A stretch of DNA of 64,000 nucleotides. Origin: Bispira polyomma. Taxonomy: Eukaryota. How positions within the stretch are numbered: position 1 is the first letter of the stretch; each line of letters opens with the position of its first letter. The notes under the pieces are model-generated. The model was not told the DNA's origin and made no database searches. It worked only from the letters and a program-made list of their open reading frames with translations. The position numbers and the translations under genes are program-made. The stretch is from assembly GCA_965649765.1 (NCBI GenBank), contig OZ287755.1, positions 31,496,001 to 31,560,000 of the forward strand, in the 5' to 3' direction. Shown here one piece after another: positions 7,364 through 43,989 of this stretch.

Positions 7364-7369
7364 TTTCAG

Positions 7370-11870: not shown

Positions 11871-12195
11871 CTTTGTCAGTTATATTTTACTAAATTAATA
11901 AAATAATGCTTTCTACTAGCGACTATTCTTTGGAGCTCGAATTAAGCTTGAGTTGTGATAATATGCATTTTAAGAATAAGGTACGTATATTCACAAAATG
12001 TTCTTATTCCTTAAAAATTTAAAGTGTCAAATTTAAGATGTATGTCTAAAAGATTGAACACACTTCCTTGTACTTGTGTCTTAGTGTTAAGATTACAGTT
12101 AACAGTTAAGAGCTCCGTGAACAGTGCAGTAATCAGATATCTGTATTTAAGTCTAAGTGACAAAGTTCAAAATCTTGACATTTTTTGGGGTTAAA

Positions 12196-13850: not shown

Positions 13851-13989
13851 GGTGATTGAACAAGGTGTACAAGACAGCTATACCCCACCTTGCTCCGCTT
13901 CCAGAACACAATTGTTGCAGGGGCGGGATGTTAAGGCTACCAGAGGGAATTGTACCTAATCTAGATCCTTTTAGGTTCTTTCCTGACAT

Positions 13990-14158
13990 ACAAAAGACTT
14001 TAGTCTATAAATATCTCAAATCAGGTTTCCCTCGATATTTCAGTTCTTACTTGTCTCCCCAATGATTCTTCTCAAATGATGCTCCTAAGCTGTGGAATGA
14101 TATTCGCACTGCCTCCTTACTAGCCAGTTTTTAGAAAAAGCTCGAAGTCTACCTTTGT
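13990..14158 (+). mobile_element. L2-type LINE 3' fragment split by E3 (continues at 19230-19300)
   Basis: FSNDAPKLWNDIRTASLL...KKLEVYLC; removing E3 restores LEVYLCSKDFPH*, matching the typical L2 C-terminus (K-x-YLF-x-KA-F/Y-P). Confidence 0.7.
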
Positions 14159-14433
14159 ACAAGGCAATGCCCTAGTGTTGGTGGGTTCAGTTCGGGGTAC
14201 CAGACTACTTGTCATGCCTGGCTGCGTTTCAATATAAAAGGGAGAGAATTTTGAATCTCCCTCCTTTTCATCAACCGTCAGCAGAAGAACAACTTCAAAA
14301 TAAAATAAACTGGAGGGTTTGGCAGAGAGTTCATGTTTTATGTTTTACATTTTTACTACTTTTACAATTTTAGTTTCTTAATGTAACCTCTCTCATAATG
14401 CCACAAATTAAAGATTATAGTTGTACGAAATGT

Positions 14434-15423
14434 ATGGGAAAGCACGCTAGGCCAGTTGGTAGCAAATGTACTTGGGTGTTACACGAGGAGTCCACTTCCG
14501 AGGATGAGATAGAAGGGGCAGTTTCGGAAGCTCCTGACAGTCTGGCCGCTGTTTCTAGTAAAATACTGTAAAAATTAGAAAGTATGGGCCAGATGATGGA
14601 ACGACTTGATAAACGTGTCTTGCTCACGGAGGCGGCTCTGAGCATGGATTCTCCTAAAACTCAGGCCAGTTCGATTTCCAACACTAGTCCAGTGATTGCT
14701 TCGGTTGAAAAGGTCAATACTGTAAGTGACGATAATGTGGTTCATAGTATCGAGTTCTTGAAGAAAAATACCTGCATACGGACCCAGGTAGAGCAGCGAC
14801 TAGTCAAGCTTAAGGAAATTAATGAAAACCCGAAAAAAGGTAAGATTAAGTCCCAAAGAGGCGGGGGGGGGGGGGGGGGATCGACGTGCTTGTCAAGAGG
14901 GTAGTGAAATGGCTCCCAAAATCATGTCCTGTCGGGCAATTTTAAGACACGTCCGAGTTATGATGATCTGTCCCTTAACCAGTGGGTATCTGGGTTTACC
15001 AGAATAATTCAAGACGAGAAAAAACCAGAAATTAAGGAAATCATGTTAGATTATATAGCAGGCTTAATGGATTTTTCCTAGGAGGCAGCCAAAGCCTGCC
15101 ATGCAGTTGTGTTGACCACAATGGAAATAGACAAACTTCAATGGACGGAAGTCGAAAAATTAGACAGGTTGAGGCGAGCTCATGCCCAGAGACACGTCGT
15201 TAGTAGTAGTAGTAGCTATAATAGCACTTGTAGTGGTAGTAGTAGTAACAAGACTGTGGGGATGGGGAAGCAGGGCTCGGCAAACTGCAAGTTTTATCAA
15301 GAAGGCACATATAAATTTCCTTCCAGCCATAAAAGTGGAAATACTTTCTTCAAACATGTTTGTGAAAATTGTGCTAGGGCCCATAAAAGCAGCAACTGCA
15401 ACAGAAAATTGGCAAAAAACTAG
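14434..15423 (+). pseudogene. E3 gag
   Basis: MGKHARP start is in frame with ORF 14584 (one internal stop). A poly-G run causes a frameshift near 14870. Ser-rich linker, CKFYQEG...HVCENCARAH...C fingers. Confidence 0.8.
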
Positions 15424-15449
15424 GAGCCTACTGCAGCAATGCAGTGGGC
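15414..15449 (+). other. Candidate -1 programmed ribosomal frameshift signal
   Basis: A AAA AAC in the gag frame just before TAG; 5-nt spacer; 10-bp stem gcctactgca/tgcagtgggc with a GCAA loop; the -1 frame is the 15444-16523 ORF. Confidence 0.65.
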
Positions 15450-17795
15450 GACCAAAAAAGTTCTAGTAGAGAATTCTACAGGACAGGATTTAAAAATTTC
15501 GAATTGTTAGACATAAATGTTGCTACAAAAATGTGTCAGTACAACAGAGGTGTACTTAGAAACCAAAGTTATAGTGAAATGGTTAAAAAACCTTGGCAAG
15601 GTATTCCTCGGGATGCAAATCAAGTATGTTCCAATATTGTGTATAACACAGGTAAGCAGTCAGTACATATTGGCAAAAGTCGTACCTTTTATAGGAACAA
15701 ATGCAAAAACCCTATTGTCAATCTCAGGCTAGGGGGAAGCACTGCTGAGGGCAAAGCTGGGTATAGGCAGAAAGGGGGAGTAAAAAGTTGTGCCAAATTT
15801 AAAATGTGTGAAGCCAGTCCAGTATTTGTACACAATAGGTTTAATTTGTTAGCTTTCTCAGATTCGACTGACTCTGTCGACAGAAATACTGCTATGCAAA
15901 CAGATCAGATGAAAGAAAAACACAGTAGCCCAGTGCGACACAGCACTGTTGGTACACGTGCTAGTACCTCGCATAAAAAGAAACCTGTGAATACCGATGA
16001 CACTGTAGTCAGTGATAAGTATGCCTTAGAATTAAAGCAAAAAATCAACAAAAAAGAGCTTTTAAACAGGGCTAAAAATAACCCCACATATTGTGAATGG
16101 CGCAGCCGAAATAAAGTTCAGTATGGCTTTACCCCAGTATCGGACTTGGGTTATAGAGTGTGGGATAGACAAGCCAGTGATGATAGTTCTGATATTTTAC
16201 AAATGCATAAGGTATTGAGAGCTGATGGTAGACAAAATTTTAAGGGCTTGCAGATACCTGTTAAGTCACAATTAAATCATGAAAAATGGTCGCATTATTT
16301 GAAGTCATATTGGGATTGGCAATTGCCAATATTAATTAAATATGGTTTTCCGCTTGATGTGATTCGCGAAAACATCAGCCAATTGGATGGCTCCAACCAC
16401 AGCTCAGCCAATGACTTTCCAGAACACATAGACATTTATTTAAATGAAGAATGTAAACATGGTGCTAAATTTTGCCCCATTTCGAAACCCACCAATAGAA
16501 AAAAATGCATTTTTCCCCTATGATGACGCGTAATAAGTCCAGCTCCAATAATAGGCGGGTCACTGTCGACCTTAGCTGGCCAATTGGTGAGTTGGTTAAT
16601 TCGGGAGCCTTTTCAAATAAATATCTTGGTACAGAATTTATACTATCTTACCTTTCAGTTGACAATCTTACCAATGAAGTCCAAAAATTAGGCAGAGGTT
16701 GCCAGATATTCAAGGTTGACATAAGTCGCGTATTCAGGCACGTGCCTATTGATCCAGGGGACGTGAATTTATTGGGTTTAAAGTGGGATTCCTATTATCT
16801 GAATAGATCTCTCCCTTTCGGCTTTCAGAACGGATCCACTATTTTTCAGAGAATTTCGGACTCGGTTCGATTTATTATGCTGCAGGAGGGATTTCATATC
16901 CATGCCTACATCGACGATTTTTTATGTGTCGCTCTTCCAAGTAAAATCACTGCTATATATGACAGACTCCAAGTTCTTCTGAGAGAATTAGGTGTTACTG
17001 TCAGCCCCAAAAAGCTAGTTCCCCCTGACACAAGTGTAGTATGTTTAGGCATTTTAATTAATACAGCGGATTTTACCACTTCAATTCCTGTTGAAAAAAT
17101 GGACGAAATAAAAAATTTATGTCAAATGTGGGAAAATAAGCAAAGTTGTACTAAAAAAGAAATGTATCAAGTATGCCCGGGTGTACCTTAACAGAAGGCT
17201 CCAGTTGTTAAGAGATAGCCATAGCAAAAAAAAAGGTTCTTAAATACTACTGAATTCAAAAGGGATCTGGTTTAGTACATTCATGCAGCAGTTCAATGGT
17301 ACTAGTTTTTTGGCCCATAAACCAATTAATGCCCAGGTTAAATTGGACGCTTGTCTGACTGGCATGGGGGGGGGGGGGGTTATATATGATGGGTAAGTAT
17401 ACAAGTTAACTGTCCCCCAGCATATGTCTCAACATAATATTGTATATTTGGAAATGATTAATATTCTTGTGGCTATAAAATTATGGGCTAGTAACTGGCA
17501 AGGTAAAAGAGTACTATTTAAGTGCGACAATCAGGGTGTGGTCAGCGTTTTGACCAGTGGTCACACCCAGGACCCGGTTCTTGCAACTTACACTAGAAAC
17601 ATATATATGTGGGTCAGTCAGTTCGACATAGATATTAAAGTCATTCATATACTTGGTGCCAAAAATAAGGTCGCCGACCTCATGTCCACGTGGGATAAGA
17701 CAAAAAACAATGTGCAATTGTTGCATAAATGGGTAGGCCCTGTAAAATGGCTTCAGACTGATGAAACGTTGTTGGAAATAGACAATAATATTTAA
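15414..17795 (+). pseudogene. E3 pol (RT + RNase H), entered in the -1 frame
   Basis: IKYGFP, VDLSWP, KVDISRVFRHVP, LPFG, YIDDF, DACLTGMG, CDNQGVV, NKVADLMS. Confidence 0.9.
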
Positions 17796-17819
17796 AAGAA
17801 TTTTATGTTTTATTTTCAG

Positions 17820-18740
17820 GAAGTAATCCTACTGAAAACTTGCTGACAAGTCTGGCTTGTAAGAGAATGCACAGTGCTTTAGCTGCCTCTACCACCTCTG
17901 CTTATGATAGCATGTTCAGGCTCTTTACAGCTTTCAGCATTTTTATGGCTTGGCCAGCCTCTCAGGTGAATGTGTTCCATATTCTTACCTTTCTAGATCC
18001 TAGGATTTCTTACTATACCAGGGCTCTCTAGGTTAATAGACCACCTCAGGTTAAGTTAAAGAGTGTGTTCAATATACCTCTCATGTTGAAATTAGTAGAA
18101 AAATGTGAATCCACCTATGGGTCTTATTTTTAAAGCTATGTATGTGACAAGTTTCTTCAGTTTTCTTTGTCTATCTTATTTGTGCCCCCATTCCAGGGCG
18201 GCGTTCTCACCCCTTAAGCATTTGGCCAGGGGGGATGTTTTGTTTAAACCTGGCTATGTCCTTCTTTTGGTTAAATGGAGCAAGACTTTGCAGACTAATG
18301 ATGCAGTGAGGCTTTTATCATTACCAGCTCTCCCCTCTTCTAAATTGTGCCCAGTTAGGGCCTTAAAAGCTGTATTAGCCTTGTCACCCCCTGGCCAGAA
18401 CGCCTCCTTATTTCAGTATAAAATTAAAAGTTCTTGGGTTCCCATGACGGATAATCGGGTAAAACTCCATCTTAAAAATGTTTTGGCTTTAATGGATTTG
18501 CAGCATTCAAATTTAACCTTTCACACCTTCTGTCGTTTAGGGGCCACGTTCGCGTTCAATAACAATGTTCGTCTACAGGACATACAGCGGCATGGCACCT
18601 GGACGTCGGATTGTGTGTGGCGAAATATTACCGATTCTGCTCAAGTAGGCACTCAGGTGGCTGATTCCTTGCTATGGCCCTACAAACTACCCCCTAGAAA
18701 GATTTGGGCTTGGTGGTTTGGGACATCTCTTCTCACCTGA
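17820..18740 (+). pseudogene. E3 tyrosine recombinase, disrupted
   Basis: SALAASTTSAYDSMF, VKWSKTLQ, LCPVRAL, FHTFCRLGATFAF, HGTWTSDCVWRNI (catalytic Y appears replaced by N). Confidence 0.9.
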
Positions 18741-20263
18741 AACTTTAAACTTTTATCTGTAAATAATAAAGAAATACCAAAGGTCAATAAATAAATAAAG
18801 AATCACAGAACTTGGGGCATAATGTCACCTGATTTTGGGGAGTACATTATGTACTCTTACATATCACTTATAAAAGTTTCAAAATTCTAATCTCTCTTCA
18901 AAATCCTAAATTAATCGACTTTAATTTAAATCTTCAATTCTTAAACTGAACTTTTTAAATTCAAGTTAGGGTGACCTCTTTCCTCTTCAAAATTATGGTC
19001 ACCTTAACTCCAGTTTGAGAACTTAATTTATGGTAACCTTACCTTCTTAACTTATACTCACCTTAGGGTTACCCTAAACTTATCTTAACTTAAGGTCACC
19101 TTATGCCCCTTCACAAAAACTGTATATAGTAGTTGTCTCACATGCTAGTCTACTAATAAACTTGTGAACCGCAGCCTTTTTCTGTGTTACATATTAAACT
19201 CTTATAACTTTGCTCTGGTTCCTGGGACCTGTAGCAAGGATTTTCCACATTAGCCTTCTTAATTTTTCCGGCATCTCCATGGTCCCGACCCCGTCCAATG
19301 GCTATATGAAATTGTTGAATGATTATTACCAGTAAACTGTAACTTTTCACTATATTTATTAACTAAAACATCATATCTGCAAATTTCAAACTTACAACAA
19401 GTGGACTGAAGCTATCACCAAAATCTCAGATTTAACACCGAAACTAGGCCAACTCTGTGTGTGATTTTGGACAAAAAATACACAGTGGAACTTGGTCCTC
19501 TTTTTAACAGTATTTCCTAGTGTGTGATTAAAAGTACAGATATAAACAGATTTCTCAGAACCTCTGTCAAGGATGTTCAACAACCAAAGGACACACTGAA
19601 GATGAACAGAACAAAATGTACTTAAAAAAATAGCTAAACAGTTCAGTTATAAAATTGGTAATAAATTTGTCAATAAATCTGTGTAAATCATGTGCTTAAT
19701 AGTCTATGACCAAAGGACGGAAACATACTTTAGATATCAACTATTAATCAATACACAGGGTTCCTTGCACCACAAAAACATGGAGCTTGATTATATTTTT
19801 GAGTTTAAAAAAGCCAGATTATAGAAAAAACACTAATGAATTGCTCCTACACAATAGGGATATCTTCCATATTTAGGGCTATTGTCCCCACCACTTAAGT
19901 ATGTAAAATAACAGTAAAGATTTGCTACTCTGAGTAGCACAAGTTATGCAGTGCCTCTCCCTTGACATTGCCTCCTAATTTGACCTTGTAAAACATTGAT
20001 GAGAGCATGTGGGGTATATCAGTTTATTTTCAAAGTTAGTTTAAAGTTTTTCTGGACAAACTAGAGATTTAAGGCCTCCATAGCTGAGTTTAAGGTTAAC
20101 CTAAGTTGAATAACATTTACTTTTAACTTTTAATTTAAGTGCTTGCTTTAAGGTGGACTTTAAAGTTTTGCATTAAAGTGAAGTTTTACGTTAAAAATAC
20201 AATACAAAAAAATAGTAATTATTGTACCAGGCTTTATTATTATTATTATAAATTTTTAACATG

Positions 20264-24709: not shown

Positions 24710-27436
24710 CCAGATGTAAATATTATATAGATATATATATATATAAAAATGCATTTATGTGGTACTTCTCCAGACTACTTGTATATATAGACTGTAAATA
24801 GGTTGTATCATTTGCTTAACCTAGTCTAAAATAGCAATAAACAGTAAATATTCTTTGGAATTAATACCTAACTGCTACTGCTAAGTATAATTTTTTTACC
24901 AAGAAAACTATATTTGTCCAAGCAATATATTTCCTGGAAATAAAACCGCAAGAGACCAATTTGATTGTGTCTGTTAGACAATATCTTGGGTAAGAGGACT
25001 GAATCAATAAACATAAGCTATCTGCAGATTATCTAGGCTATTATTCTAACTCGAAACAAGTAAGGAAACTGTACTCAGTGAAGGCACATCCACCCGCCTG
25101 AAAATGTTTCTTTCCACTAGGCTACCACTCTAGTTTAGGTTCGCTTTAATGTTGCTTTCAAAACATTTTGTGTCATATCAGGACGGCCAGTATTTGAAGA
25201 ATACAGTATTTGGTCAAGGGTTTCTACTCTACCAACTGCCGGCCTTCAGAAAGTCTACTGCCTGTCAACTTCTTTTCAACATGTCAGTGCCCAGGCCAAA
25301 ATTATAACCAACGACTGCTATGTGAATGTGTTACCACTGTTTCATTGAGGCACCTGGTTACCACTACCAAAAGAAAACATTTGTCCTATATTATAAAGTT
25401 GTTTATTATACTTGATTTCATTTTTTTCAGAATGTAAACTAGTCAAAGTTAAAGAAATCATTGGAAGTACTTGGTGATCAAATCACTGGAGTCTATCTCT
25501 CTCCTAGCACCAAAACATACACCATTAGTCTATGTCTTGGTGGATTCTTTCATTTTTTCCAACTACAAATGTTGTTTGCCTGTATCTATCTGTCACTAGC
25601 ATCAAAACAGAAACTACTTAACCTAAATTGCATGGGCTTTGGTTGATGGATAAAACATGTGTTAGACTAGACTCCGCTTAATTCTGGAATGGATTACAGA
25701 ACTAGTTAGTCTAGTTAAAATGGCTGATTGAGAATAGTGGTGCCTGTGAAGACATATCGCCTCTCCCCAAAAAAAGAAAAATTTGCAGATTGCATCATAA
25801 CCGAAATGACCTGCTATATAGATGCCATACTCTAATTAGAAATTTGTTGTATATACTTTACACTGAAGACAAATTCAAACACCTATTTGTAATTTTTTAT
25901 TGATGTTGTCATATTAAAAAGTGTTCATTTCCCTCCAGGGTTCAAACCAAAACACAAAATTGGGTGAATGAAGGGTGAATGAAGCTGCAAACAAAATTGT
26001 ATATGTGATAAATATTACTATATTTAGTATTCTTTTCGATAACCTCTATTAAACCTACAAGTCTAGTAAGCCACTTTTTATGTTCTAGATGTGGTCATGT
26101 GAACCAATGCTATCATGAACCGCCATATACCACAACCATCATTACCAACACAGACCCAATCTATCAAATATAACCTACAAATGAATGTGTTATTGGCAAC
26201 CACATTTTCATAAGGCTGCTTGTGCTGAGGGAGCCAATGTGATAAATGGAAAAATCCCCAAATGTTTCATCCCTGAGTTAATGCACCACGCTAGATATTT
26301 TAAATGTTGACTACGATAATTTGCTTAGGGATATTGATTAACATGTGTCATCTTTTTAAGCTCTTAAATGTTCTAATACCAAAATGTATTTCTAAAAGAC
26401 CATCAGAGTAATATCGGATACTCGTGACAATTAATTTGCAACTGAACTAGAAATTATGTCAAATGGTCCCACTTAAGTATAGGATAGGCTCCAGGTTAGC
26501 ATTTATTCCATGGAAATAGACTACGAGGTCCCTAAATCAAACGTCAACAGATAATTAATGTTTACACAATCTTACATCTTTGTAATGACACAGGCAAGTG
26601 TATACACTTTCAAAATACTCTTTTTCAGATTCCCAATTTAAATTGCGTCCTTGCTCAATTTGTTATCATGTCCATAACAGAGGCTGATAATAAAAGATTA
26701 ATAGAGATGAAAGTTTAATAAGCAAATATCGCATGTAAGTTCCAAAGTAGAACTAAACATGTCTACTTGCCTGACCAAAATAGAAACAACAATCTCCCCC
26801 ATTATCAATCAGTGTAGGGTAAAAATTGTTCCAGACCTACAACCTTTATTAAAAAAGGAAGTAGGCACAGTTGTAAAACATCTATATTATCAGTACAAAC
26901 AAAAATACCCTGAGCTATTCGTACTTGACAGCATAAAATAAGTTTAAAGATTTGATAATTTCGAACCCTAGGTTGTCAACTAGAAGTGGACGGCATTTCT
27001 TACTCCTAGAACCTCTGTCTGTCGGCAAGCAGTCAATATCCCCCAAAATAATATTTCATTTTCTTTCAGTTCCTCGCAAATAGGAAATTATTAGTACGGT
27101 AAAATCAGCCATAAAAAATTATATGGGGGAGGAGTTACTATTGACTGCCCGAAGTAGTCTGTGGTATGTGTTTTAGTGACTCCAACTATCTGTAACCTAT
27201 TACCCGAGAAATTTCCTTAAGTTCTCGGTGATAGTTTTTTCTTCATGTCGCAACGGTTAATTCCATGCATAAGGATCCTCACATACATTGTAAATTGTAT
27301 CCATGTCCAATGTACGTTTGTCTTTCTTAGCCTGGATGATATCCACACATTCCCTGGGGGTTGCAATTGTAGGCAATTAGGACAACATTAGGAGGAGCAT
27401 AATAATGAATATTTCCATCTTACATTGAGCACATGA

Positions 27437-27687
27437 ATTGAATTTGGATATTTAACGTCCACTCTAGTACCTGTTTTAGGTTATATTGGAACGGGTAGTT
27501 GGTAACGCTGGAGGAAACACTGCATACAGTTGATCAAGGTTCTGCAGAGAAACCAGCGGCCCACGGTAAGGAACTACCACCTTTCCCACATAGGCATCAA
27601 CGGGATTCGAACTCACGCTGCCCAGAGGTGAGAGACCAGTGATTGTGAAGCGAAATGCTTGCTAACCACTAGGCCACCGCGGCCCCC
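27437..27687 (-). mobile_element. tRNA-derived SINE (family A)
   Basis: TSD attgagcacatga at 27424-27436 and 27688-27700; empty site in copy B near 31053. Confidence 0.92.
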
Positions 27688-29007
27688 ATTGAGCACATGA
27701 TTAGTGTTATATCTAATCTCTCAATGTGCTCAGCATCCTAATAAAATAAAATATAACAGTAATCAAAACATCATAGGTTGAGCAGAGAAATGATTACACT
27801 GCTGTGAACAAGTGTTGTCTTTTTTAAAAAGACATTGGCGCACAAGTGTGACTGACACCCTTAAGTTTGGCCAGGTCCATTGCTTGCAACCAATCCATGA
27901 AGGCGTTACATATTTTTAAGATGGCCGTACCCTTTTCAGAATAAAATCAGTTTCAGGGCGCTTGATAAAAAAGTGCCCAGTAAATCTGAAGGAACATTTT
28001 GCTTAAGCAGTTTTAGCCCAAAATAGTGGCCAAGCTCAGACCAGTGGTTACATCAGGTTGTAACTCGTCAGGTCTGTTCAGTTAAATATTCTATGTAAAC
28101 CACTGTCTTAACACTGTTTGGACAGCTGCATGTACTTGGGGGATGCCCAACCCTTTCATAGGATTGTCTGGCATCCATTACCAAAAAAATACTATGCAAG
28201 TGGCATGTATATGTCTTATCTAGAGGTGAGCTTGCAACAAATTTTGTCACAGGAATATCACATTTGACACGCGTTAAGAGTTTATCTTCACTTTCAAAAA
28301 ACTTATGTCATAACAATAAAGTCAACATATATTACAAAAGAATGAATAACTTTTAATAAGCAACCAGTTTATTTAAAAATTATTGGTTACATTATTGTTT
28401 TGTGCACTGCATAATAGGCAACACTATGCAAATGACAGCAAAGATAATCTCCACTCAGAGTTGTTTTTGCAGAGTTCATTAACTTTATTTTTAAATGCAT
28501 GAGTCAGCTGAGCTGATATAATGATCTAATTGAAATACACATCCTTGAATATAACTTTGACCTTTACTCTAATGCGTCATTAAAAATACTATAATTTCTT
28601 GTTTTTTTTTGTTTGTTTAATGACTCCTCTCACACAGTAAAGGAGTGACACAATGTTTTACATTGCTTTTCAATATGAAATATGATATTTAATATTTCCT
28701 ATCATTTCTGTGTTACATAAAAACAATATCCTGTATTAAATATATTTGTCATGTCTTAAGGCTAAATTGTGCAAATTGACAAACTCATAAATTTTGATAG
28801 AATATTCATAAGGGAAGTAATACAAATAAATGTAAAACCTCCAAAACACCAAAGCCAAATCTCCATACATTTAAATCTACTTTGTCCTAAATATAATATA
28901 TGTTGCTAAGTGTTCTTGCAACCTATCATTGGGAACATGATTTATGCGAACAAAGAGCTTGTACTGGGAACCTAGCATTGTAGAATGACGGAATTATTTT
29001 CCCCTTA

Positions 29008-29235
29008 AGTGTGCCACAGTGGCCTAGTGGTTAGAAATGTCTGTTTCACAATCCCTGGCCTCTTACCAATGTGCTTTTTGAATCCAGTTCTTTCCTTATT
29101 GTGTCAAAGTTTGTCAGGTACTTGCAGTGGGTTGGTGGTTTACAATGCTTCAGCACTGGTCTCTTCCTCCATTAAATCTGGCCAAAGTGATATGACCCAA
29201 GTTGTTAAAAGTTACATCATAAACCTCAACTAAAT
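29008..29235 (+). mobile_element. SINE family B copy (paralog at 32623-32830)
   Basis: gtggcctagtggttag...tggtggtttaca.tgcttcagcactggt; present in both duplication copies. Confidence 0.7.
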
Positions 29236-30772
29236 ATAATAAAGAAAAGTTATACCTTATCAGTTTAAATCACCTTTTGAGCAATAGATCTTATTCTACC
29301 TTATAGCATAGATGACTTTGACAACCTAAATTTATCAGTACAAAGATCAGGCTAGTAATATGACTTGTACTCAGTAAGTAATCATCATCGTGGTTATATT
29401 CTTATTCTTAAGGTATTTTCACTTTTTGATAGCTATATTTCATATTTGTGAAGAGGTTTAAGGACCTTGACAGATAAGAATAATCATATTGTAAATGGCA
29501 CATGGAAATATATTCCTAATTATGCTTCCCATGATTTTGTTTTCTTCTTGCTCATATTCTGTCACAACGTGCCAGCAATTGCTAATCCATCATCCTGTCT
29601 GAGAAAGCTGTGGGTATCGTTGAGGCTAAGAAAGATGAACATACATTGAACATTGATACAATTTTCAACAATATTAGGGACATCATGCATAGAGATAGAC
29701 CTTTAGTTTGATATTGTACTGGTAAAGTAGATACTGAGATAGCATCTTGCCTTATTTTCCTGTATTATTCTATTATTGAGTTATAGGTTTGATTAATGAT
29801 AGAGGACAGACAGATATGTGTAAGAAGGAAACCAATAATAGTTTTGGTATTATTCTGGCACAAATTCTGTCACATTCTGTAAATTTGAAGTCAGGGTTAC
29901 TGTGTTGAATATATACACCATTTCTATTCAATTTTTAGAAGATGAATGTAACAAAAAATGGGTATATATATTCAACATAATAACCTAAACTAGCATTCCC
30001 GATCTAATTTCGGTTGGAAACTCGGCTTTCAAAACATATGTTGGACGTATGGACACATGTTGTTTGTAACTTGACCTTTCCGGAGTGAGGATTTTCTTGA
30101 TGTTGTATGATCATGTTGATGCTCTATATAAATCTATTGTACACTTTAATAATAGTTTTCCTGATAATGGGTTTGCAATATGGAACAGTCTGCATATGTT
30201 TGCTTAACAGTCTGCTTCATGTTTGACAGAAACTCAGACATATTCAGGGTTTTGATGTTTTTTTATTACCAATAAAATCATTCAATTACTGAGGCAGCTG
30301 AGGATATGTCTTAGAATAAAAAAAGCTATATGTGCAGTAAACATCAACCCAAATTACAGTAATGTAAGAGATCTGTCCATAAAATTGGAAACATATGATG
30401 TCAAGTAATGGTGGCTGAGTTTTGGACAGTTTTGCTAGTGTCAAACCCTGGTTATAGATCTGAGAAATGGTTTAGCTTGCTATAGAATTATAGATTTGGG
30501 ATCATTGATTTTTGTTAATTTATATTAATATTCTTCTTAAATACATAAAATTTACTACTCTGATCAACACATCTGAATTATCACTTAACATTTAAAATTT
30601 TCAAACATTACACAGAAATATAATTCACATTTAATCTCATTTCTCTTTTAAAATATTGGCAAGTAGTAAAGTATCTTAAATTATATACAAATATATTTAA
30701 ACCTATCTTTACACTAAGATTAAGTTTCTAGATAAATTAACCATTTCAGTTGAAGAGACACAGCCACAGAAA

Positions 30773-33700
30773 TCTGTGGTGTGTGTTTTAGTGACTCGAC
30801 CTATCTGTAACCTATTACTCAATTTCCTTCAGTTCCTGGTGATAGTTTTTTCTTCCTGTCGAATAGGGTTAATTCCATGCATAAGGACCGTCCCGCTGTA
30901 GTAAATTGTATCCATTTCCAATGTACATTTGTCTTTCTTAGTCTAGTTGATACCTACAGATCCCCTGGGGATTAATGATGAATGGGCAATTGCAGGCAAG
31001 TTGTGACAAAATTATGAGAAGCATAATTATGTTATGAATATTTCCATCTTACATTGGGGGCATGATTATTGTAATATCTTAATCTCTCAATGTGCTCAAC
31101 CTTGTAATAAAATAAAAAATTACAGCCATTAAAACAACATAGAGCACAGAAATGATCACAATGCTGTAAACAGGTGTGTCTTTTTAAAAAGACATTGGTG
31201 CACAGTGTGACTGACACCCTTGAGTTTGGCCATTGCTTACAACCATTCCATGAAGGCATTACATATTTCTGAGATGGTCGCACACTTTCCAGAATATAAT
31301 CAACTTCAGGGCTCCTTATAAAGAAGTGCCATGTAAATTTCACCTATGGTAAATGCTGTGTAGCATATATATCAATTCCCACCTAACATAGATATGGTAA
31401 AGACACCATTATAACTGAATTTTAAAGGAGCATTGTATAGGAGCAGTGTGAGGCCAAATAGGAACAACCCAAAATAGTGGCCAAGCTCATATTAGTGGTT
31501 GCATTAGGTTGTAGCTCGTCAGGTCTGCTCATTTATATATTCTATGTAAACCACTGTCATTGTCTTGACACCGCATCCAGGGAACACCTGCATGTACATT
31601 GGGGTTTGTCTGTCATAGGATTGTCTGGCAACAATTACCAAAAATAGTCTGAATGAATATGTCTTTAATGGAAGTGATATTGCAAAAATTTTTGTCACAG
31701 CAATATCACATTTGTTAAGAGTTTATCTTCGCTTTCCAAACACTTATGTCATCACAATAAAGTCAAAGGACAGAAAAAACAAATGAATTACTCAAATAGA
31801 ATTGAAAAAAGAAACCAATTAATTTTAAAATTATTGGTTACATTGTTGTTTTGTGCATTGAATCTGAATTTTTAGGCAATACTACACAAAATAGAGCAAA
31901 GTCAAACTCCACACAAATATATTATTGCAGTTTTTTTACTTTATTTTTAAATACCTGAGTCAGCTGAGCTTAACAAAAACATATTAAAGATATAATGATG
32001 TAATTGAAATACACATCCTTAAATATCACTTTGACCTTTACTCTAATACGTCATTAAAAATACTATAATTTCTTGTTTCTTTCTTTAATGACTCTTCTCA
32101 CACAGTAAAGGAGAGACACAATGTTTTCCATTGCTTTTCAATATAAAATATAACATTTAATATTTCCTATCATTTCTGTGTTACATAAAAACAGTATCCT
32201 GTATGGTATCACAATAAGCTAAAAATGAGATAAAAATCATAACTTTGTATTTGATTAAACTATATCTGTCATGTCATAAGGCTAAATTGTGCAATTTGAC
32301 AAACTCATGCATTTTGACAGAATATTCATGAAGGAAGTAATACAAATAAATGTGAAACCTCCAAAACACCAAAGCCAAATCTACATATATTTAAATCTAC
32401 ATTGTCCAAAATATAATATATATTGCTAAGTCTTCTTGTAAACCCATCATTGGGAATATGATTTATGCCAATGAAAAACTTGTACTGGGAACCTAACATT
32501 GTAGAACGATGGAAAAAAGCCCAAATAAAATGGAACAATGTAGTGTTTAAGTGAATTTAATTCAAGAACAATTAAAGGTCTACTCATATAAATACTCACA
32601 GTATATTTTTTTTAAAGTGTAGAGGTGCCATAGTGACCTAGTGGTTAGCTTCACAAGCACTGGCCTCTCATCAATATCGGTTTGAATTCGTTCCTTCATG
32701 TGTCAAAGTTTGTCAGGTACTTGTCATAAATTGGTGGTTTACAGTGCTTCAGCACTGGTTTCTTCCTTAAATCTGGCAAAATTGATAAGACCCAAGTTGT
32801 TGAAAGTTACATTAACCCCAACTAAATAAATTAAAGAAAATCACAAAAACACATCTGCACAGTCTTTATTTTTCTTTTTAGTTATTCCTTAGATATTCCT
32901 TATCAGTTCGAATCACCCTTTAAGCAATAAACCCTATTCTACCTAATAGCATAGATGACCTTAATGACCTAAATTCATCAGTACAAAGATCAGGCTAGTA
33001 ATATGACTTGTAATCACTATGTAATCATCAACTAGGTTTTTGTGGTTATATTCATATTTTGTGAAGGTATTTTCACTTTTGGCTTTATTCCATATTTGTG
33101 AAGATGTTTAAGAACATTGGCAATCATATATTAGATTACACATATGGTCAATATCACATGGAAAAAATATTCCTAATTATGCTTCCCATGGTTTTGTTTT
33201 CTTCTTGCTCATATTCTGTCACACCATGCCAGCAGTTGCCATACCATCTCCCTGTCTGGAAAAGCTGTTGGTATCGTTGAGGCTAACAAAGATGAATATA
33301 CTTTGAACATCGATACAGTTTACAACCATATAAGGGACATTGTGCACAGAGATAGAACTTTAGTTATATATCGTAGTGGTAGTGTAGATACCATCTTGCA
33401 TTATTTTCCTGTATTATTTAAGATTTATGGGTCTGGAGCAATTTTTACCATACAGAGATTAATGATAGAGGAAAGGCAGACAGATATGTGTAGGAAGGAA
33501 ACCCATAATAGTTATTCTGGCAAAAAATCTGTCACAACTTGCCTGTAATTGCCTATCCATCACATCCCCGAGAAAAGCTGTGTGGTATTACTGGGACTAA
33601 AAAAAGACAATCACTATGCACAAGTTGAGCATTAATCACAATTTACAAGAATGTGATGGACATTTTGCAGAAAATTAGGCTTTTAATCTTATCCCATGCT

Positions 33701-35420
33701 GTCAAGTGGGGTGGTGGTTCAATAGTTCTTTCTATACACACTGTAAACACTTGACCTCTTAGATTCATATTCCTGTATCATTAAAAGCGCCTGTTAGATC
33801 AGTTGCTGTGTTTAGTTTTTGCAAAATGTCAAGCTTAACTTAGACTGACTCTCAAATCAAAGATTTCCTTTATCTCTGGCTAGGATGACTGCTATATTAA
33901 TTTACATGGTTACAAGTATTATAGATTATTATCTATATATAGGCCATTCTACATAGTCACCATTTGATTTGAGTTGAGTTTCGTTGGAGAATACATGCAT
34001 TGGAATAGTTTTTAACCTCACGTGGGATTAATCCAGGTTGTCCAGGATTTATTGTTGGCTGTCATGAATTGGATGGCTTGCATGTGCAAGTTCCTTAATT
34101 GACTGGACTAAATCTTAATACCTACTGAACATGTTGTTCACAAATACTTATTCTTAGGGGTTTTTGTATTGTTGCATTCTTAGTTTATAATAAAAAAAAA
34201 GAAACATATTTGAAAACAAGAAGCCATTGCCATTATGCTATATCAATAGAAACAGAAATATATTTGTCTAATATTACAATTATGACCCTATATCTGACTG
34301 GATAACTCTGTGGCTCCATATTACATTGATGACTCTATATCTGACTGTATAACTGTTTCACTTCATATAAACTATATTACTTAATTTTAAAGTGTTTTTT
34401 TTTTTTTTTAAAATATGAAGTTTGTCACTTATAACAATCTAACTAAATGAATATGGTAGTTAGGGGTGCGTATCAGACCAGAAAAACGTATTTCGATATA
34501 TTACGATACGCAGGTCATATACGCGATATGTATTGCGATATATTGCGATTAGGCTTAATATATGGAGTAAGGTGTACATTACTTCAAAATATGAAGTTAT
34601 TGTGTTGAATATACACACCATTTCTATTTAAATTTTAGAAGAAGAATGTAACAAAAAAATGAAAAAAATTCAACATAATAACCTTAACTTCATATTTTAA
34701 AGTAAAGTACACCTTACATGCAATAAAATGAGCCGTTTCTGGCTGATATACTATATATATTAACCCCAATATGACTTCACAAACTAGCACTCCCGATCTA
34801 ATATATGGACTATATCAGCCTCAAAAATGAGGTTTAAACAGGTATTATTTCTTTTATTTCATAAGGTCATCTCATTTTGTCATCTATATTATATACAATA
34901 ACAGTCCCGACTTTGACTTTTCTACGTTCAATCTTTATGGTCGGGGATCTAAATCGGGGATCTAGATCCTATAGGCAACACGTTCGATCCTAGGGCGATA
35001 CATCAGATCCTATCACTAGTAAGTTCGATTCTATCCTGGTTCAAGTAAGAACGGGGTCACTGTCCCTTTCGATTGAAAACGCCGCCAACATTTTTATTTT
35101 GATGCCCAAAAATGGATTTTATTGATTTTTCCGCCCGACCCTTCCGACTTTAAAATGGGGCCCATTTTGCCGATCGACCTTAAAAATAGAACCCCCCTTT
35201 AAGAAATCTATCTATAAAATTTCTTTTTTGTTTTTAATTTTTTCCAAACATCACACAGAAAGCACAACCATACTTACATTTCATTTTTTCTGTTTATAAT
35301 ATTGGCAAATAGCAAAGTATCTTAAATTATATGCAAATATATTTAAACCTATATTTACACCAAGATTAAGCTTCTAGATAAATTGGCCATTGTAGGGGAA
35401 AGAAAACACAGTCACAGAAA
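30773..35420 (+). repeat. Tandem segmental duplication, copy B (with copy-specific indels)
   Basis: Matching blocks at 28020/31470, 28500/31955, 29100/32700, 29900/34600 and 30650/35300. Confidence 0.85.
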
Positions 35421-38206
35421 TAACATTAGTAGAGAGCCAAGTTTTCTGAGGGATTATATCATGTTGTGTAATGGATATTTAAGCAGAAGAAACCTGACTT
35501 TGTTAGATAAATCACTGTGAATCTCCCCACAGACCCTGCTGCATTTCAAGTACAATATTGATGATCAATGTTAATATAGGGCAATTGACACTTTTTACCC
35601 TTCACCATCTCTGTGAAAGCAGCACTAGTTTTTATTTCTTTTTACATTGAAGCATATGAAGTAATTTTAGCTTATATAAGACTGTTTCTAGTATTGAAAA
35701 ACAATAGTGAATAAACCCATCATTAGATACAGATATGGTTTAGTTTGTCTTTAGCTGCTCTTTTAATATGTCTTATGTTATATGATGGCGAGTAGTTGGT
35801 CAAGGTTTTCTGCTCTGCAAACCGTCTTCAGCAAGTCTATCACCAAGTTTCCCAACATACATGCCAATGCTGAGACTCAAACCCACGGCCACAGAGATGG
35901 GATACCAGTATGTTACCACTACTGTACCACTGAGACCCCGCAGAGACTGATATAACACAGCTGTAATGTTAATAAATGCACATTTATAAAATTTCAAGTT
36001 TGTTTAGTTTACTTTGTCTTCATGCCACTCTTAATATTTCACCTATATTATAGAGGGCTATATAGAAAAGTAAAAGCAACATGTGGACAATTCCTATAAA
36101 GCTGACATCCCACGTAGGTGACAAAATGCACAACAGTGTTCTGCAACAATTTGTTGGTGATTGTTTTCATTGCTTGTGTGCATTTGTCTGAAAACCCCCA
36201 AATAAAAGGGGCCTTTCAACGCCAATGTTGAGATAGTATGACGACACCCAGGAGACAATGGGGAAACCTTTAATATTATGGCTTGTCACCTAGCCAATTC
36301 GGCTATACAGAATGGGGCTTCAATGAATGACTTCAGAGAACTGGACACCGTACGTACGATATATGTATGATAAACTTTGCTTGTTCCTTGCATGTTTCAG
36401 AGTCAATGAAGTTACTGTTATTTGCTAAAAAAAGGGCAAATTTTACATAATTTGGTTCCCAAGAAAGGCAAATTAGTTAAAAATTGTTTCTGTCTCTTAA
36501 CCTAACTTCATAGGGAAATTTTGAAAGACATAGCATCAAATGTAGTACAGGCATATGATATTGTACATAATTAAAGTTCCTCATTAATATCTTTTAGTGT
36601 ATTTTACTAGTGATAATATGTACAGATTGCGTGCAGGCAAAAAATCATTATTTAATTTCTGAGATTATTTACAGATAGAAAGACAATACATTTTTATTAG
36701 TGCTGGAGGTGCTGTCATGTTTATCTTCCTACTATATTATTGGCTCTAGGTTCAGAAAGTTGTAAAAAGTGTCTCCTGAGACAATCTCTCTATCAGGTAC
36801 TTATTGTCATTGTCAATTTGTAATTCTTCAGAAAATCTAATTTTATTTACCATTTCTTACTAGACTGAGTTTTGTGTTATCGAAAATACTTTTACTTTTA
36901 CTGATAGTATGCATGGCAATGGACAGAGCAATTACCATAAGCAAAACTGACACCGCATATAAAACCCAAAAAATATCATCTTTCCATTGAGTCTGTGGTT
37001 GTATGTTGATAAAACAAAAGCCGTACACAATATTACAACTTATGGCCAACCTAAAAGTACTTGAATTATTAAATATCATTATTTGAAAAGATTTCCTTAT
37101 ATTTCTTGTTGAAGAGAACATAACAAACTGCCGTGTCAGATTTGTTGATTTTTGCTTATGGTAAACACCCTGTCTCTCGCCGACAGAAAACTCTGTCTTG
37201 GTCTAAACTAGACAGAATAATCTGTCCCCATTTAGCAAGATTCCTTGCTGTTATTTTACCGACGGACTTATGAAAAGGGACAGAACGGCTAAACATACAT
37301 CCTAATGCAACTGGCATATTCGACAAAGTGTTTCCACAATATTTCTTTTTCTAGGTTTTACTCTTATCTACAGTATTTATAATTAGCACTGCCAAGGTAT
37401 TTGTCAGTGTTAACTTTCTCAACAATGATTATTGCAACAATGTTTTAGTTCCTCATAGGAAAAATGTTTATTAATTAAAGCTACTGAGCAAAAGTCATAT
37501 TAAATGTGCTCCTGTGACATGCCATTCCACTTAAGGTCATTTAATTTGTTTTGAAAAAAATGCAAGATTAATGATTTTGATGTAATTAAGTAAGTTGAGT
37601 CCCTTCTGCCACTTTTTTACTACATTGTAGTTAGCTGTGGTAATGTATTTGAATTGTAATTTCATTTACTTTTTTGCAAATATGTATCAAATGGTAATTA
37701 CTTACTAAATGACATAAAAAGTTTTGGTTGTTTTATGCTCACAGACATATTTATCCTATCTTGATATATATGTGAACACTAATATACTACATGTACTCAC
37801 AATCGAATAGACTGAAAGTACATTATAATTTGGACAATCTATTTCTGATGTCTATATGTGGACAGGATGTACCAATGAAATTTTAATAAACTTCTGTTAC
37901 AGTTATTTTATAGAAACAAACGCTGAATCAACAGCTTGCAACAGGTAACACTTTACAATTTAAATTTTGTTGGGATTTAAGTCGCTTTGAACTGCTTAGG
38001 TCATACCATGACGGCCAGATTCAATGGTAGTAGAAAGCAGTGTGAACAGCACGACCACTTCAGGGGCCTGCTGCCTCAGTTATAAAGCACGACTTTAAAT
38101 CCTTTTAATAAAGTCTTTTCTTGTTTCACCTTCTGTCCATCACACAATACCTCTAAACCAATCAGCTTAGGACACATGGTCAAACTGTGTATTAGGACCC
38201 ACGCTT

Positions 38207-39008
38207 AGGTGCCATATTGGAAACTCAAACCAAGGAGGTAACAAGTGGAAAAAGTTTTAGACATTATTAATGATTGATATATATACGTGCTTTAATTTTA
38301 GTGTAACTTTGTTTTTAATCAGTATACACACTATGGGACGTACAAAGAAGACACCTGGCAGTGCATCACAGCCTAAAATAAAGACAGCTACAAAGAAAGT
38401 GATCAGTCAGGTATCATTATCCGACTCTGTCGCACGTAATTTGCAAGTTCCTTTGTCTGAAGCTACCCCGAGTAATTCTATGTCAGCCGGATCTGAGGGG
38501 CTATCTGAAGTTATGAGCGTTTTGCGCAGGCTTGAAGCTGTGAACACTTCTATTAACAGACGTTTAGACCAAGTTGAAACTAAGGCCACGTCTTCAACGA
38601 GTGCTCAGGTGCCATATTGGAAACTCAAACCAAGGAGGTAACAAGTGGAAAAAGTTTTAGACATTATTAATGATTGATATATATACGTGCTTTAATTTTA
38701 GTGTAACTTTGTTTTTATAATCAGTATACACACTATGGGACGTACAAAGAAGACACCTGGCAGTGCATCACAGCCTAAAATAAAGACAGCTACAAAGAAA
38801 GTGATCAGTCAGGTATCATTATCCGAATCTGTCGCACGTAATTTGCAAGTTCCTTTGTCTGAAGCTACCCCGAGTAATTCTATGTCAGCCGGATCTGAGG
38901 GGCTATCTGAAGTTATGAGCGTTTTGCGCAGGCTTGAAGCTGTGAACACTTCTATTAACAGACGTTTAGACCAAGTTGAAACTAAGGCCACGTCTTCAAC
39001 GAGTGCTC
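38207..39008 (+). repeat. Near-identical 400-bp tandem duplication of the gag start
   Basis: aggtgccatattgg at 38207 and 38607; I see only one substitution and one 2-bp indel between copies. Confidence 0.95.
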
Positions 39009-39807
39009 TGCATAACGGCCACACGTTTGCTACTACCTCTGCTCAGGCCTCGCCGTTACTACAGCCAGCAGTTCCCCCACCACAGGCTACAGCAGTGCAC
39101 ACATCCCATCAAGAATTTCAACGAGATTGCATAGTACCGAAACTCGACATGCTGAAGTCGATGGCTGACGTGAATACAGCTGTTAACCAGAGATTGGCCG
39201 CCTATGACGCCAGACTTACCCATGACCTTACACAAGGTAAGCACCTATCAAAGCATAGATCTGGGCGATTTAATACAACGGACATCTGCATCCCTGAGCC
39301 ACAGCATCGTTGGCCCAATGAAGGATGTGTAGGCGGAACTGCGAAAAAACGTCCTGCTTACGATGAGCTTTCTCTTTCTCAATGGGCGTCGGGTCAGTTA
39401 TTCAACATTTCACACATTTCTGATATCACGCTTATGAAGCAGATGATCATGCAAGTCACCTACTCATTGAGAGATGCGACATCTCTTCCTTGGTCCGCAG
39501 TTAGGTCTGCATGGGCCCACAATATGCAGGAGATTGAGGAGAACCGGATGGAGTGGGCAGACTCAACTCAGTGGGCTATTAACAGGCTTAACATGTCACA
39601 GATGGCGCTAGTCAATTCACACGTCGCACAGGGTACTCAGAAACCGAAAGTCACCTGCAAATATTTTAATGTTGGATCGTGCAGTCACGACAGTGATCAC
39701 AGCCAGTATCGTCATATTTGTTCTCATTGCTTAAGCACCTCAACAAGGAGAGTAATCATCCAGAGTTTAAGTGCGTGAAGGCTAACAGTGCTAAGGCCAC
39801 AAGTTAG
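38735..39807 (+). pseudogene. E4 gag (nearly intact, one frameshift in the last finger)
   Basis: 347-aa ORF MGRTKK...CKYFNVGSCSHDSDHSQYRHICSHC. The shifted frame continues KHLNKESNHPEFKC (matches E2) to TAG at 39805-39807. Confidence 0.9.
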
Positions 39808-42420
39808 GGAGGTGGTCGACTGCCTGGACCACTGCCAAACACTGATGTTGACTCTAGTTGTAAAAAGTATAAGATTGCTAACAGTAATTATAAGTTTGGA
39901 AGAGACGATAGTACTAGAAGTGCTTACAAAATTGATTCTAATTTAGAACTAAGTACTTTTGGAAATTTAAATGATAATATTATTCTCAGACATACAGACT
40001 ATGAATGTAACAATGTGTATAATGATTTCAGGAATCTGTTGATGTTACTAATCAACAGCTGGACAGTGTTGCTTATGGCAAAGTCTCTGGTTTTAATACT
40101 GACACCTCATACCTTTATTATAGTAATCAAGGGCAAACTAGTAACACGGGGATGGGAAGAAATCATATAGAAGGTGATAATTCTCAGAAAGGAAATATGA
40201 TTCATAATGGGCTCTTACAAATTCCGAACCTTAATTGTGTCTGTCGTGTGTCAGTGTTGGAACCACCTAGTTGCTTTGATAAATGCTGTTTTCAGATATT
40301 CAGCTGTAGGGCAAATGCCCATTTTTCCAATCAATATTATGTACACATATAATACTTGGGTTACTATAGATATGAACACTAACAAAATTGGTGGTTATAC
40401 CGCTAACCAGTTGGAGGAAGCCAACTTAGTTTGGTTGAATCACAGTAAAGACACGGCATGCTTCAACGACCACGGATGTGATTATACAGTTCACATCTGC
40501 AACATAATTGATAAGCTTACAACTGTCAATTGTCATAATGACATGCATGCAGAGCATGTTAACAAGGGTGAGATTACCACCAATAAGGTGACCAAGGCTA
40601 GCATCACACGTACTCCCGTTTATGGGTTAATGGACAAGTCGGGCGACTTGCTTATTAACGCATCCTCTTCTTCTGAAAACAATCAGATTAAGGACATTTA
40701 TGATCACAACAAAACAACAGGTTTTATTAATTAAACTTTCTGATACAAGTTTTGAATTCGTGGGTCCTGACAAGGATTCGGTCCACATAAAATCTGTACA
40801 ACATTTATGTGAAATTGCAGAGATCATTAGGAATACAGGCATGCCAAATTATCAACAGGCTCGTATACCGATTAAGTCGGATCTGAATATTTCAGCTTGG
40901 GAAAGAATTACTCATGATCATACTGATAAATTGATTATGCAATATATCAAATTCGGTTTTCCACTGTCTAAACAGGAACCTAGTTTATTGGTCAACACAA
41001 ACATTACTAACCATGTCTCAGCCTTGCAACATCAAGAAGCAGTAGTAGCTTACTTGACTAAGGAGAAACAAAAGGGAGCTTGTTAGGCCCAGTTGCCAAT
41101 GTGCCAGATAAAAACTTTCACTGCTCACCTTTACTAACCAGACGAAAGGACACAAATAAAAGCCGAGTAATCTTGAACCTTTCCTATCCTCCAGGTCGGT
41201 CGGTTAATGATCAAGTGGACAGTTGCTTCGATGGTACTACCTTTTGTCTAATATTGATGATATTACTTATGCTATTCAAAATACATTCAATGCAGTTATG
41301 TTCAAGGTCGATGTCGAGTGGGCATTTCGTAACTTGCGCGTTGACCCTGTCGACGCAGTGAAATTTGGAATTACTTGGAACAATGAGTACTTTTTAGACG
41401 CTGCCGTGGCGTTCGGATGGGCACACGGTAGTGCTTCTTTTCAGCGATGTTCCGACATAATAGTAGACTATATGAGTAGTAAAGGGTATCAACTGTATTG
41501 CTACATCGACGACTACATTTGCATAACCACAGAGACTAAGGCAGACAAGGGTTTTTCAATATTATGTGAACTTATGGACGATTTAGGGCTTCAAATGAAT
41601 CCAGACAAAGTATGCCCCCCAGCAGATCACATGACATATTTGGGTATTGACATTGATATCACAAGCAGTACAATTTGCATTACCAAAGACAAAACTGAAG
41701 AAATACACTTAGTATGTAAGGAAACAAGACAGAAATCTTGGCTATCTCGTTCCAGATTTCAGTTTCTTCTTGGCAGGCTTTTATACATCCACAAATGTGT
41801 AAAGCCTGCCAGGTGTTTTATTAATAGATTATTGGCAGTTTTTAGAGCATCCCCTGGTGCCAAGAGATTTAAGGTCACAGACAATGTGAAACAGGATCTG
41901 GACTGGTTTATTAAATTTTTATACCAATACAATGGAATTACATATATCAACCCTAGATTCATACAAGCAAGCAAAGAATTACACCTCGATGCCTGCTTAA
42001 CAGGCATAGGGGCATTCTGGGGCACTGAAATTTATCATACACCCATATATAACATCTATGGCCAACCTTTACATATCACTCAGCTTGAAATGCTAAATAT
42101 TGTCATTGCACTTAGGGTGTGGGGCCCATCAACAAATTACAATTCATTGTGACAACATGGCAGTGGTCTTGGTGGTTCAGACCGGTAAGACTAAGGACGC
42201 TTTTCTTGCTGCATGCATTAGGAACATTTGGCTTCTAAATTCTATACACGACATTACACTACACGTTAAACACATTAAGGGTAAAGAGTACATATTTGCT
42301 GACGCATTATTGCGGATATATTCTCCACACCCACAGAACCAAGCAGTACTTGATCTCATGGCAAACCATACACTTAGGGAAGTTTTACCACAGTACTTTA
42401 ACCTAGACTGTCATATATAA
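39808..42420 (+). pseudogene. E4 pol (RT + RNase H), frameshifted
   Basis: IKFGFP, ILNLSYP, KVDVEWAFRNL, FGWAHG, YIDDY, DACLTGIG, HCDNMAVV, FADAL. Confidence 0.92.
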
Positions 42421-42426
42421 TTGTAG

Positions 42427-43190
42427 GTGCCACTGCTGCCTCAGCTTCACTGGGCCAGGCTGCTATTCTAAGGCTGGATTCAGCACTACGCCCATCCACA
42501 CAAATGGCCTACAAGAACCAGTTCAAGACATTCCTGGCTTTCTTGCATCATGTGCACATGTAGGACTATACATTCAATTCTAGCGTTTCTAGAATACTTG
42601 GTGCAGAACAATTTGTTAACTAGAGTGGTAAATAACTACATTTCAGCACTTAAATTTATGGCATCTAAGTATGACCTTAATGTGCATTTATTTCATCACA
42701 ATGCAGTGGCACTGTTTACTAGAAGTCTCACACATACCTCCAAATTTAGACCTGTTACAAAAGGGGTGTTCGACATCAAACACATCTCACTTATCTCACA
42801 AGCGTGTTCCATATTAGATAACCCTACACTTTAGAGGGCCATTTTTCTACTGGCTTTTTATGGGTTTTTGAGAATGTCAAACATTGCTCCACACTCAAGG
42901 TCAAAATTTGACTCTTCTAGACATCTGTTACGACAGGACATAATACTAGGCCCACCTGGTGCCCATGTAATAATCAAATGGGCTAAGAACATGCAGGACA
43001 GGTCAAGCTCTCATGTGGTCCAGCTCCCTATTATTTCAGCTCCACACGTTTGTCCAGTAAGAGCTATTTCCACACTTCTTAGGTCAAGAGATCTTTTACC
43101 CTCACAACCTTTGTTTGCTACCTCCTTGTGGTCATATCTTCAGTCTACATCACAAGCCACTTCCTTTTGCCTCCATAATCCCTGCATCTA
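42427..43190 (+). pseudogene. E4 tyrosine recombinase, with internal deletion
   Basis: SALRPSTQMAYKNQF, FYGFLRMSN, IKWAKNMQ, CPVRAI; jumps from QPLFAT to WSYLQST and lacks the HxxR region. Confidence 0.88.
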
Positions 43191-43989
43191 TTTAGCTTGG
43201 GTTTGGGTTCAGTTCAAAAATTCAACCTTACATTTGAATTTTGGTAACCACTTCTATACTTACCACAACTTGTACATATGCTAACCCTGTACAAAAAATA
43301 AATCTCCAAATGGTATCTTGCTTTTATTAAAACTTCAAAACTTCATGGTCATTATTTTCCACATCACTTCTGAAACCTGCATAACTGTCGAAGCACTGTA
43401 AACCACCAACATATTCGAACCTATATCAGTGAGAGGCAAGTGATTGTTATAAAGGTTCTTCTAACAAGCATGTAAAACCCAACTAAATTTTAACCACTAG
43501 GGCACCTGGCAATACTAAAAAGTGTGATTCATGTCATAGTAGAGATGAGCCAAAATGACTTGCTTGCTACGGACCAAGACGTTCCTCTAACTCAGTTCTC
43601 ACAACTAGCAATAACTCATTTGAATGGACTGGAAGAAAACTTATATTGATAAATTATTTAAATTTCTGCCTGATCTATTTTCATTGAAGAAGACAGATGC
43701 CAAATACAGGCATGTGGCATTGGTAATAATGGGATGTAATGCCTTACTGGTTGACTTGGAATTAGACATGCTGAGTGGTACAGTCACCTCTAGACATAGT
43801 CATCTCCATCTGGCTTTGGATGAACTTCTTGCCCTTAGAACTCTCTCTCCTCATTGCAAGCAACTCAGAATTCCGTACAGTGATTCTGCCTCCTCTCTTC
43901 AACCTCATGATGTTTACTAACCAACATCAGTGTCTTTTATTACTTGAACTTCAGGCAAGGGCTTGGTGGCAAGGAAAGAGGTCGGAGTG

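Follow-up and report, generated by a model that had tools for sequence, protein, structure and literature searches.

E4 is a tyrosine recombinase (YR) retrotransposon that occupies 38043-43387 on the forward (+) strand of a 64,000-nucleotide stretch of the Bispira polyomma genome (contig OZ287755.1, positions 31,496,001 to 31,560,000), referred to here as the window. It carries a single copy of each of two repeats, A at its left end and B at its right end, and it is dead, both its pol and its YR gene being broken. The family to which it belongs is Ngaro-type, by its domain order, its lack of a methyltransferase and the split direct repeats found at the level of the family. Complete members are arranged as A1-gag-pol-YR-B1-A2-X-B2, where X is a spacer, and E4 probably had this arrangement when it inserted, losing A2-X-B2 afterwards through recombination between B1 and B2. 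A first-pass annotation had offered two explanations for the missing repeats, namely a lineage that has no repeats at its termini and becomes terminally redundant through transcription of an excised circle, or a B-A-B arrangement collapsed by recombination. The former is refuted by the test proposed along with it, because family members carry standard split direct repeats; the latter, in which we infer the collapse event, is consistent with all the data and is the best reading.

A split-repeat family around E4

The genome was searched with each end of E4, with its reverse transcriptase (RT) and later with spacer X, and the loci were then retrieved. A complete copy on C5 (L041) has the layout A1-ORFs-B1-A2-X-B2 (ORF, open reading frame), with A of 213 bp, B of 185 bp and X of 540 bp; within this locus A1 lies at 1252-1423, B1 at 6198-6387, A2 at 6385-6597 and B2 at 7137-7326. 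This copy is 91-93% identical to E4 in the body and 93% in RT, and its spacer is found nowhere in E4. The A repeat of E4 (A1, 38043..38255, +, 213 bp) begins TGAACAGC and is 94% identical to A2 of the C5 copy (L041:6383-6597). The single B repeat (43203..43387, +, 185 bp) ends in ATAACTG and shows 4 mismatches to B2 of that copy and 9 to B1; its 5′ edge lies in the context of B1, its 3′ end stands at the flank, in the position of B2, and the A2-X-B2 block of complete copies is missing. At the B1|A2 junction, L041 reads ATAACTG|TGAACAGC, identical to the joined ends of E4, and the joined-end 18-mer has one mismatch-free match in the genome, at this very junction. The junction string aactgtgaacagc, which had been proposed as a marker of an excised circle, is therefore misleading, as it is chromosomal at the internal junction of the C5 copy.

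Five RT-bearing copies are at least 89% identical. One is complete, one is arranged as A1-ORFs-B1-partial A2, with 116 bp of A2 and nothing further within ~12 kb, and three (E4, C7 and C12) have the form A-ORFs-B with exact ends. The close family also includes four solo A-X-B copies, one B1-A2-X-B2 fragment, and shorter or internally deleted pieces (L051-L055, L057). One solo copy, L047, carries both bases diagnostic of E4 and C12 (C at 38088, G at 43379), and thus the sub-lineage of E4 had A2-X-B2; its B differs from that of E4 at 4 of ~181 sites. E4 and the C12 copy are sisters in the tree (99/97) and form the closest pair of repeat-less copies, with 76 differences in ~1770 sites, against 80 between E4 and the complete copy; the tree does not resolve the position of the C7 copy.

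Split repeats recur in sibling families, which are 64-80% identical in RT. Among their 15 distinct RT loci, 5 have split repeats, 8 have a single B at the flank (one of these with its 5′ end outside the retrieved sequence) and 2 are unclassifiable. At the level of families, split repeats are found in L041, L066/L067, L075 and L080, with the internal pair downstream of YR, and the internal junctions of the sibling families have ACTG|TG in common. The suggested check of genomic copies for A-BAB repeats thus turned such copies up, both in the close family (L041) and at 5 of the 15 sibling loci. A search with a loose pattern for the B end gave 95 matches, against 44 in a control, with no new member among the matches examined.

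Several loci are of interest in their own right. The ORF-less B1-A2-X-B2 fragment (L046:7148-8295) lies between perfect 23-bp direct repeats (7148-7170, 8273-8295) and, to judge from this arrangement, looks like a 5′-truncated linear copy inserted at a staggered break and not by YR. The internally deleted copies at L055:2656-4204 and L057:3003-3325 have the first 41-47 bp of A joined to gag, and the L055 derivative retains both exact ends within 1.5 kb. At L090:1372-3988 an 80-bp piece of A2 has been amplified to ~30 tandem copies between B1 and X, and a sibling copy at L071:2309-3386 has a duplicated 3′ block, B-A-B-A-X-B. L066 and L067 (C10) are the same complete sibling element, present twice in inverted orientation 130 kb apart, in an apparent segmental duplication.

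Ends and insertion site

Both boundaries quoted for E4 in the first-pass annotation were found in the sequence. The flanks of E4 match the left and right halves of a single repeat, the putative family-B SINE of that annotation, of which uninterrupted copies lie elsewhere in the window; by read depth this repeat is high-copy. The left half (37943..38042, +) is 70-74% identical to unbroken copies at 54516-54425 and 29257-29154, and its last 2 nt are the target TG; the right half lies at 43388..43465 (+). In the unbroken copies 54516-54407 and 29257-29131 the halves are separated by a 2-nt gap, as at the empty site of E4. The reads comprised three contig-only runs, from at most two samples of one study. 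A read contig of another copy of the interrupted repeat has 15 letters between the positions corresponding to 38029 and 43390, which equals the count for the empty site. Because this spacing equals that of the unbroken repeat copies, there was no target duplication or loss at E4. Across the junction of B with the right flank, a 309-bp read contig (43358-43666) showed zero differences in all three runs.

Nine close-family sites with both ends were compared side by side. The comparison places the ends of the element itself at TGAAC... and ...AACTG, which set the outer limits of E4, and none of the nine has a target-site duplication. The reported 3-nt TGT overlap without a longer duplication is correct for the missing duplication, but TGT at both ends is peculiar to E4 (1 of 9 sites) and is not a family feature; targets include GCAGTG^T (E4), CAAGTA^A, TCAGTT^A and GGAGTT^A. 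Of 45 flank-type left ends, 43 have T at -2, 26 have G at -3 and 23 have A at -4. With one deletion junction and one duplicate locus excluded, T is at -2 in 41 of 43 left ends, relative to a background of 0.32 (p 2e-18). Only this T, which precedes the insertion point by two bases, is invariant across the family. Judged from the sites, the recombinase thus likely requires a match at one T within a core of two bases and weakly favours certain bases around it. TGT as a 3-bp crossover core was ruled out on the count of 1 in 9.

The joined ends do read CTGT-GA-ACAG, as had been reported, but this palindrome is at the level of chance, an inverted repeat with 4-bp arms occurring nearby at 13.4% of 5000 random positions in E4, and it is missing from all three sibling-family junctions tested. 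As a recombinase site it was therefore ruled out.

No inverted terminal repeats (ITRs), internal complementary region (ICR) or short direct repeats were found above chance at the ends of E4 by repeat scan, self-BLAST or end-against-end comparison; in the sensitive version of the last, the best match was 14 nt (E 0.058). The self-comparison that had been called for thus revealed no missed terminal repeat, and the reported lack of a long repeat between the 5′ and 3′ non-coding regions holds in this respect. What had been overlooked is an internal tandem duplication of 402 bp (38203..39008, +), which covers the end of A, the leader and the start of gag and is not found in the four other ORF-bearing copies. 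As assembled, its units lie at 38203-38606 and 38603-39008 and are 99% identical by repeat scan and self-BLAST. A 205-bp read contig from this region has twice the depth of its flanks, and the same stretch occurs exactly once in the assembly.

Coding region

The gag-like ORF (38735..39778, +) encodes a Cys/His cluster at its C-terminus and is homologous to the first ORF of the other YR elements of the window; it has no Pfam match. The pol gene (40366..42420, +), encoding RT and RNase H, was delimited by Pfam RVT_1 (E 2.5e-10) and by tblastn of three homologues, the alignment to which is split over four frames by breaks near 41080, 41245 and 42125. The broken YR gene (42421..43196, +) is 83% identical to the YR frame of L066 over residues 1-157; it contains stops and has lost 189 bp near 43126 that two sister copies keep. 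Thus, of the claim that E4 has two intact ends, the exactness of the ends stands, but the element between them is not intact. In relatives, the YR matches Phage_int_SAM_1/4 above the cut-off and Phage_integrase weakly (E 0.004). Pfam scans of E4 and its relatives gave no match to rve, the DDE integrase. The pol gene of E4 ends right after RNase H and is directly followed by YR, which leaves no room for a methyltransferase; Dam (PF05869) was found neither in the 18 ORFs scanned nor among the domains listed for 86 homologues.

A hairpin in spacer X

Spacer X, between A2 and B2, is 500-640 bp long across the family. A G+C-rich, branched and conserved hairpin lies within it at L041:6630-6810 and at 18 other loci. 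The first 200 bp of X are 77-87% identical between families, compared with 68-80% for RT, and in L041 have a folding z of -4.3. In the alignment of the 19 copies, 95.8% of the cells are paired. Of the 42 pairs, 5 show changes in both partners, in one case in 7 sequences; the remaining changes mostly affect a single side and might reflect neutral decay. Because of this, and because the copies are related, support for the hairpin is moderate. Rfam gave no match to the A-X-B region of L041, and 6 further loci yielded one chance miRNA match, outside X. A profile search for the hairpin gave no match in the 64-kb window, and all three A-ORFs-B copies (E4, C7, C12) are without it. The hairpin is a candidate cis signal for replication, for example in priming or packaging; its absence from the A-ORFs-B copies is a further argument against their independent spread.

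Origin of the A-ORFs-B form

Complete members keep the end-to-end junction AACTG|TGAAC internally, at B1|A2. In DIRS-1 (PMC7192593, PMC3266345), retrotransposition depends on a second, internal copy of the end junction, and models of insertion have YR recombine a circle into a target that is not duplicated; by inference from this analogy, the B1|A2 junction may have the same role here. Reverse transcription would rebuild the ends on this junction and yield a circle, which YR would insert without duplication after a T-N dinucleotide (a pattern seen at the sites), in this case inside a high-copy repeat. The two 185-bp B copies, ~940 bp apart, would then recombine to leave A1-ORFs-B, as recombination between A1 and A2 at other loci would leave solo A-X-B. 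The copy evidently then decayed through frameshifts and deletions. A-ORFs-B and solo A-X-B are reciprocal products, and both are stable end states.

Several points weigh against a collapse after insertion. At no locus were a complete and a collapsed allele both seen, which means that the event itself was not observed, and no empty or second allele of E4 appears among the joints listed (15 of 46, and 12 of 25 in a second table). No read contig spans E4. B1 and B2 have no fixed differences, and for this reason the B of E4 is not demonstrable as a B1/B2 chimera. A-ORFs-B is the commonest ORF-bearing form. The genome searches used A, B, X and RT as seeds and scored the 40 best-ranking candidates, so that the counts are biased and represent minimum values. 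Searches of the open literature yielded no paper naming an A-ORFs-B product; in the accessible portions of the literature on TOC1, molluscan Ngaro and ribozymes in DIRS elements, there was likewise nothing on A-ORFs-B forms or spacer RNA. Finally, the sister grouping of E4 and C12 would also be expected from a spreading short form, and every route through a short circle yields the same sequence as a collapse.

Such routes underlie an unlikely alternative, in which E4 was short from the outset. A complete master would have produced a circle with a single junction (A-ORFs-B), the short form being then either left behind or inserted by YR. One source of the circle could be a transcript that ends at the AATAAA of A2 and undergoes a template switch between A1 and A2; others are YR recombination of both B|A junctions and YR excision of A2-X-B2. 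The A repeat indeed contains TATA-like and AATAAA hexamers in an order like that of a long terminal repeat (LTR), as candidate signals; the ends of E4 are exact; and A-ORFs-B is frequent (three of the five close loci and eight of the 15 sibling loci), the solo A-X-B copies of the close family (4) being near-equal to it in number. Resolution by YR, however, should also give permuted A-X-B-A-ORFs-B insertions, and at none of 17 internal B|A junctions is the junction followed by gag, neither X-B-A-gag nor YR-B-A-gag order being seen in the chromosome. Thirteen of these junctions have X within 900 bp and two have X after a local duplication or expansion, while one is truncated and one runs beyond the retrieved sequence; three of the 20 pattern matches had been excluded, L020 and L079 for having no family A head next to them, and L063 as a true 5′ end with no B upstream. 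This result counts against the YR-resolution version, not against the template-switch version. Moreover, plain recombination gives the same products without a new step. We also regard it as rather doubtful that A-ORFs-B copies are primary Ngaro replication products, that is, that masters also make an X-less one-junction circle which the recombinase inserts as a precise dead-end copy. If so, repeats would have been missing from the start in most ORF-bearing Ngaro copies of this genome, and the conserved hairpin of X would act as the cis signal setting replicating copies apart from dead-end ones.

An assembly error that fused B1 with B2 and lost A2-X is very improbable. That no read contig spans E4 would agree with such an artefact, the contig across B and the flank is expected either way, and E4 also has the 99%-identical tandem duplication of uncertain status; but B1-A2-X-B2 is resolved at other loci of the same assembly, with A copies up to 99.5% identical (L075), the single-B form is common to eleven loci, and the scaffolds reach tens of megabases. 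Least credible of all is a repeat-less lineage that acquires terminal redundancy like a pararetrovirus, by transcribing an excised circle. E4 and two more copies do have exact ends and no terminal repeats, but complete split-repeat copies and X-bearing solos are known from this family and sub-lineage, the conserved hairpin is missing from all three A-ORFs-B copies, pol and YR of E4 are broken, and there is no burst of near-identical repeat-less copies, even the closest pair being as divergent as given above. As the family has split repeats, no pararetrovirus-like redundancy is needed. We therefore retain recombination between B1 and B2 after insertion as the probable origin of E4.

The importance of this result is limited: the Ngaro-type family is new, and E4 is a decay product whose origin mirrors solo-LTR formation. 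In many cases, Ngaro copies described as repeat-less may have arisen by a B1 x B2 collapse that kept the ends exact, a point relevant to annotation and to the counting of copies. The family also suits a test of split-repeat replication, in that the two possible circles differ in X, the T at -2 rule is measurable and the X hairpin is a candidate signal.

Other features of the window

The window carries three further YR retrotransposon remnants, at 18-1445 (-), 4214-8560 (+) and 12190-19100 (+), with 23-54% amino-acid identity to E4. Neither split repeats nor an X hairpin were found near the two on the + strand (4214-8560, 12190-19100). A host segment of ~3 kb, unrelated to E4, is present as two tandem copies diverged to 74-86% (27158-29991 and 30773-34689).

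Comparison with known systems

In combining RT/RNase H with a tyrosine recombinase, and in having no DDE integrase and no target duplication, the family belongs to the DIRS order. Within it, the published Ngaro layout is A1-ORFs-B1-A2-B2 without a methyltransferase (PMC9210276, PMC4157794, PMC3783388, PMC13465315), and the family has both the split direct repeats and the lack of a methyltransferase. E4 itself, with one A and one B, does not have the split repeats, and is therefore classed as a reduced derivative and not as a complete element. The family differs from the Ngaro superfamily in the 500-640 bp spacer with a conserved hairpin between A2 and B2, and E4 in being without A2-X-B2; no SGNH hydrolase ORF was seen in this family. 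That Ngaro copies can lose their 5′ or 3′ split repeats has been reported in general terms (PMC9210276).

DIRS1-like elements (PMC3266345, PMC7192593) resemble this family in YR insertion without target duplication and in NTT-like trinucleotide ends, T-N-T being found on the left in most copies here. Unlike them, with their ITRs, ICR and 3-bp circle junction, the family has no ITR, ICR or methyltransferase, and its two ends do not carry a matching trinucleotide, the fixed part being a single T. No methyltransferase follows RNase H as it does in DIRS1-like and PAT-like elements; with the latter (PMC4157794), the family has split direct repeats in common, but it is without a methyltransferase domain, and the interval from RNase H to YR is too short to accommodate one.

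The closest parallels to the remnants of this family are solo forms. In Cafeteria Ngaro elements, solo AB repeats are ascribed to recombination between the 5′ and 3′ repeats (PMC8547959), and solo A-X-B remnants occur here likewise. SIRE, which equals the A2-spacer-B2 part of VIPER (PMC6681497), also has a spacer between A2 and B2, its unique spacer being ~30 bp. Unlike solo AB and SIRE, E4 is the reciprocal product, in which the ORFs were kept and the internal repeats lost.

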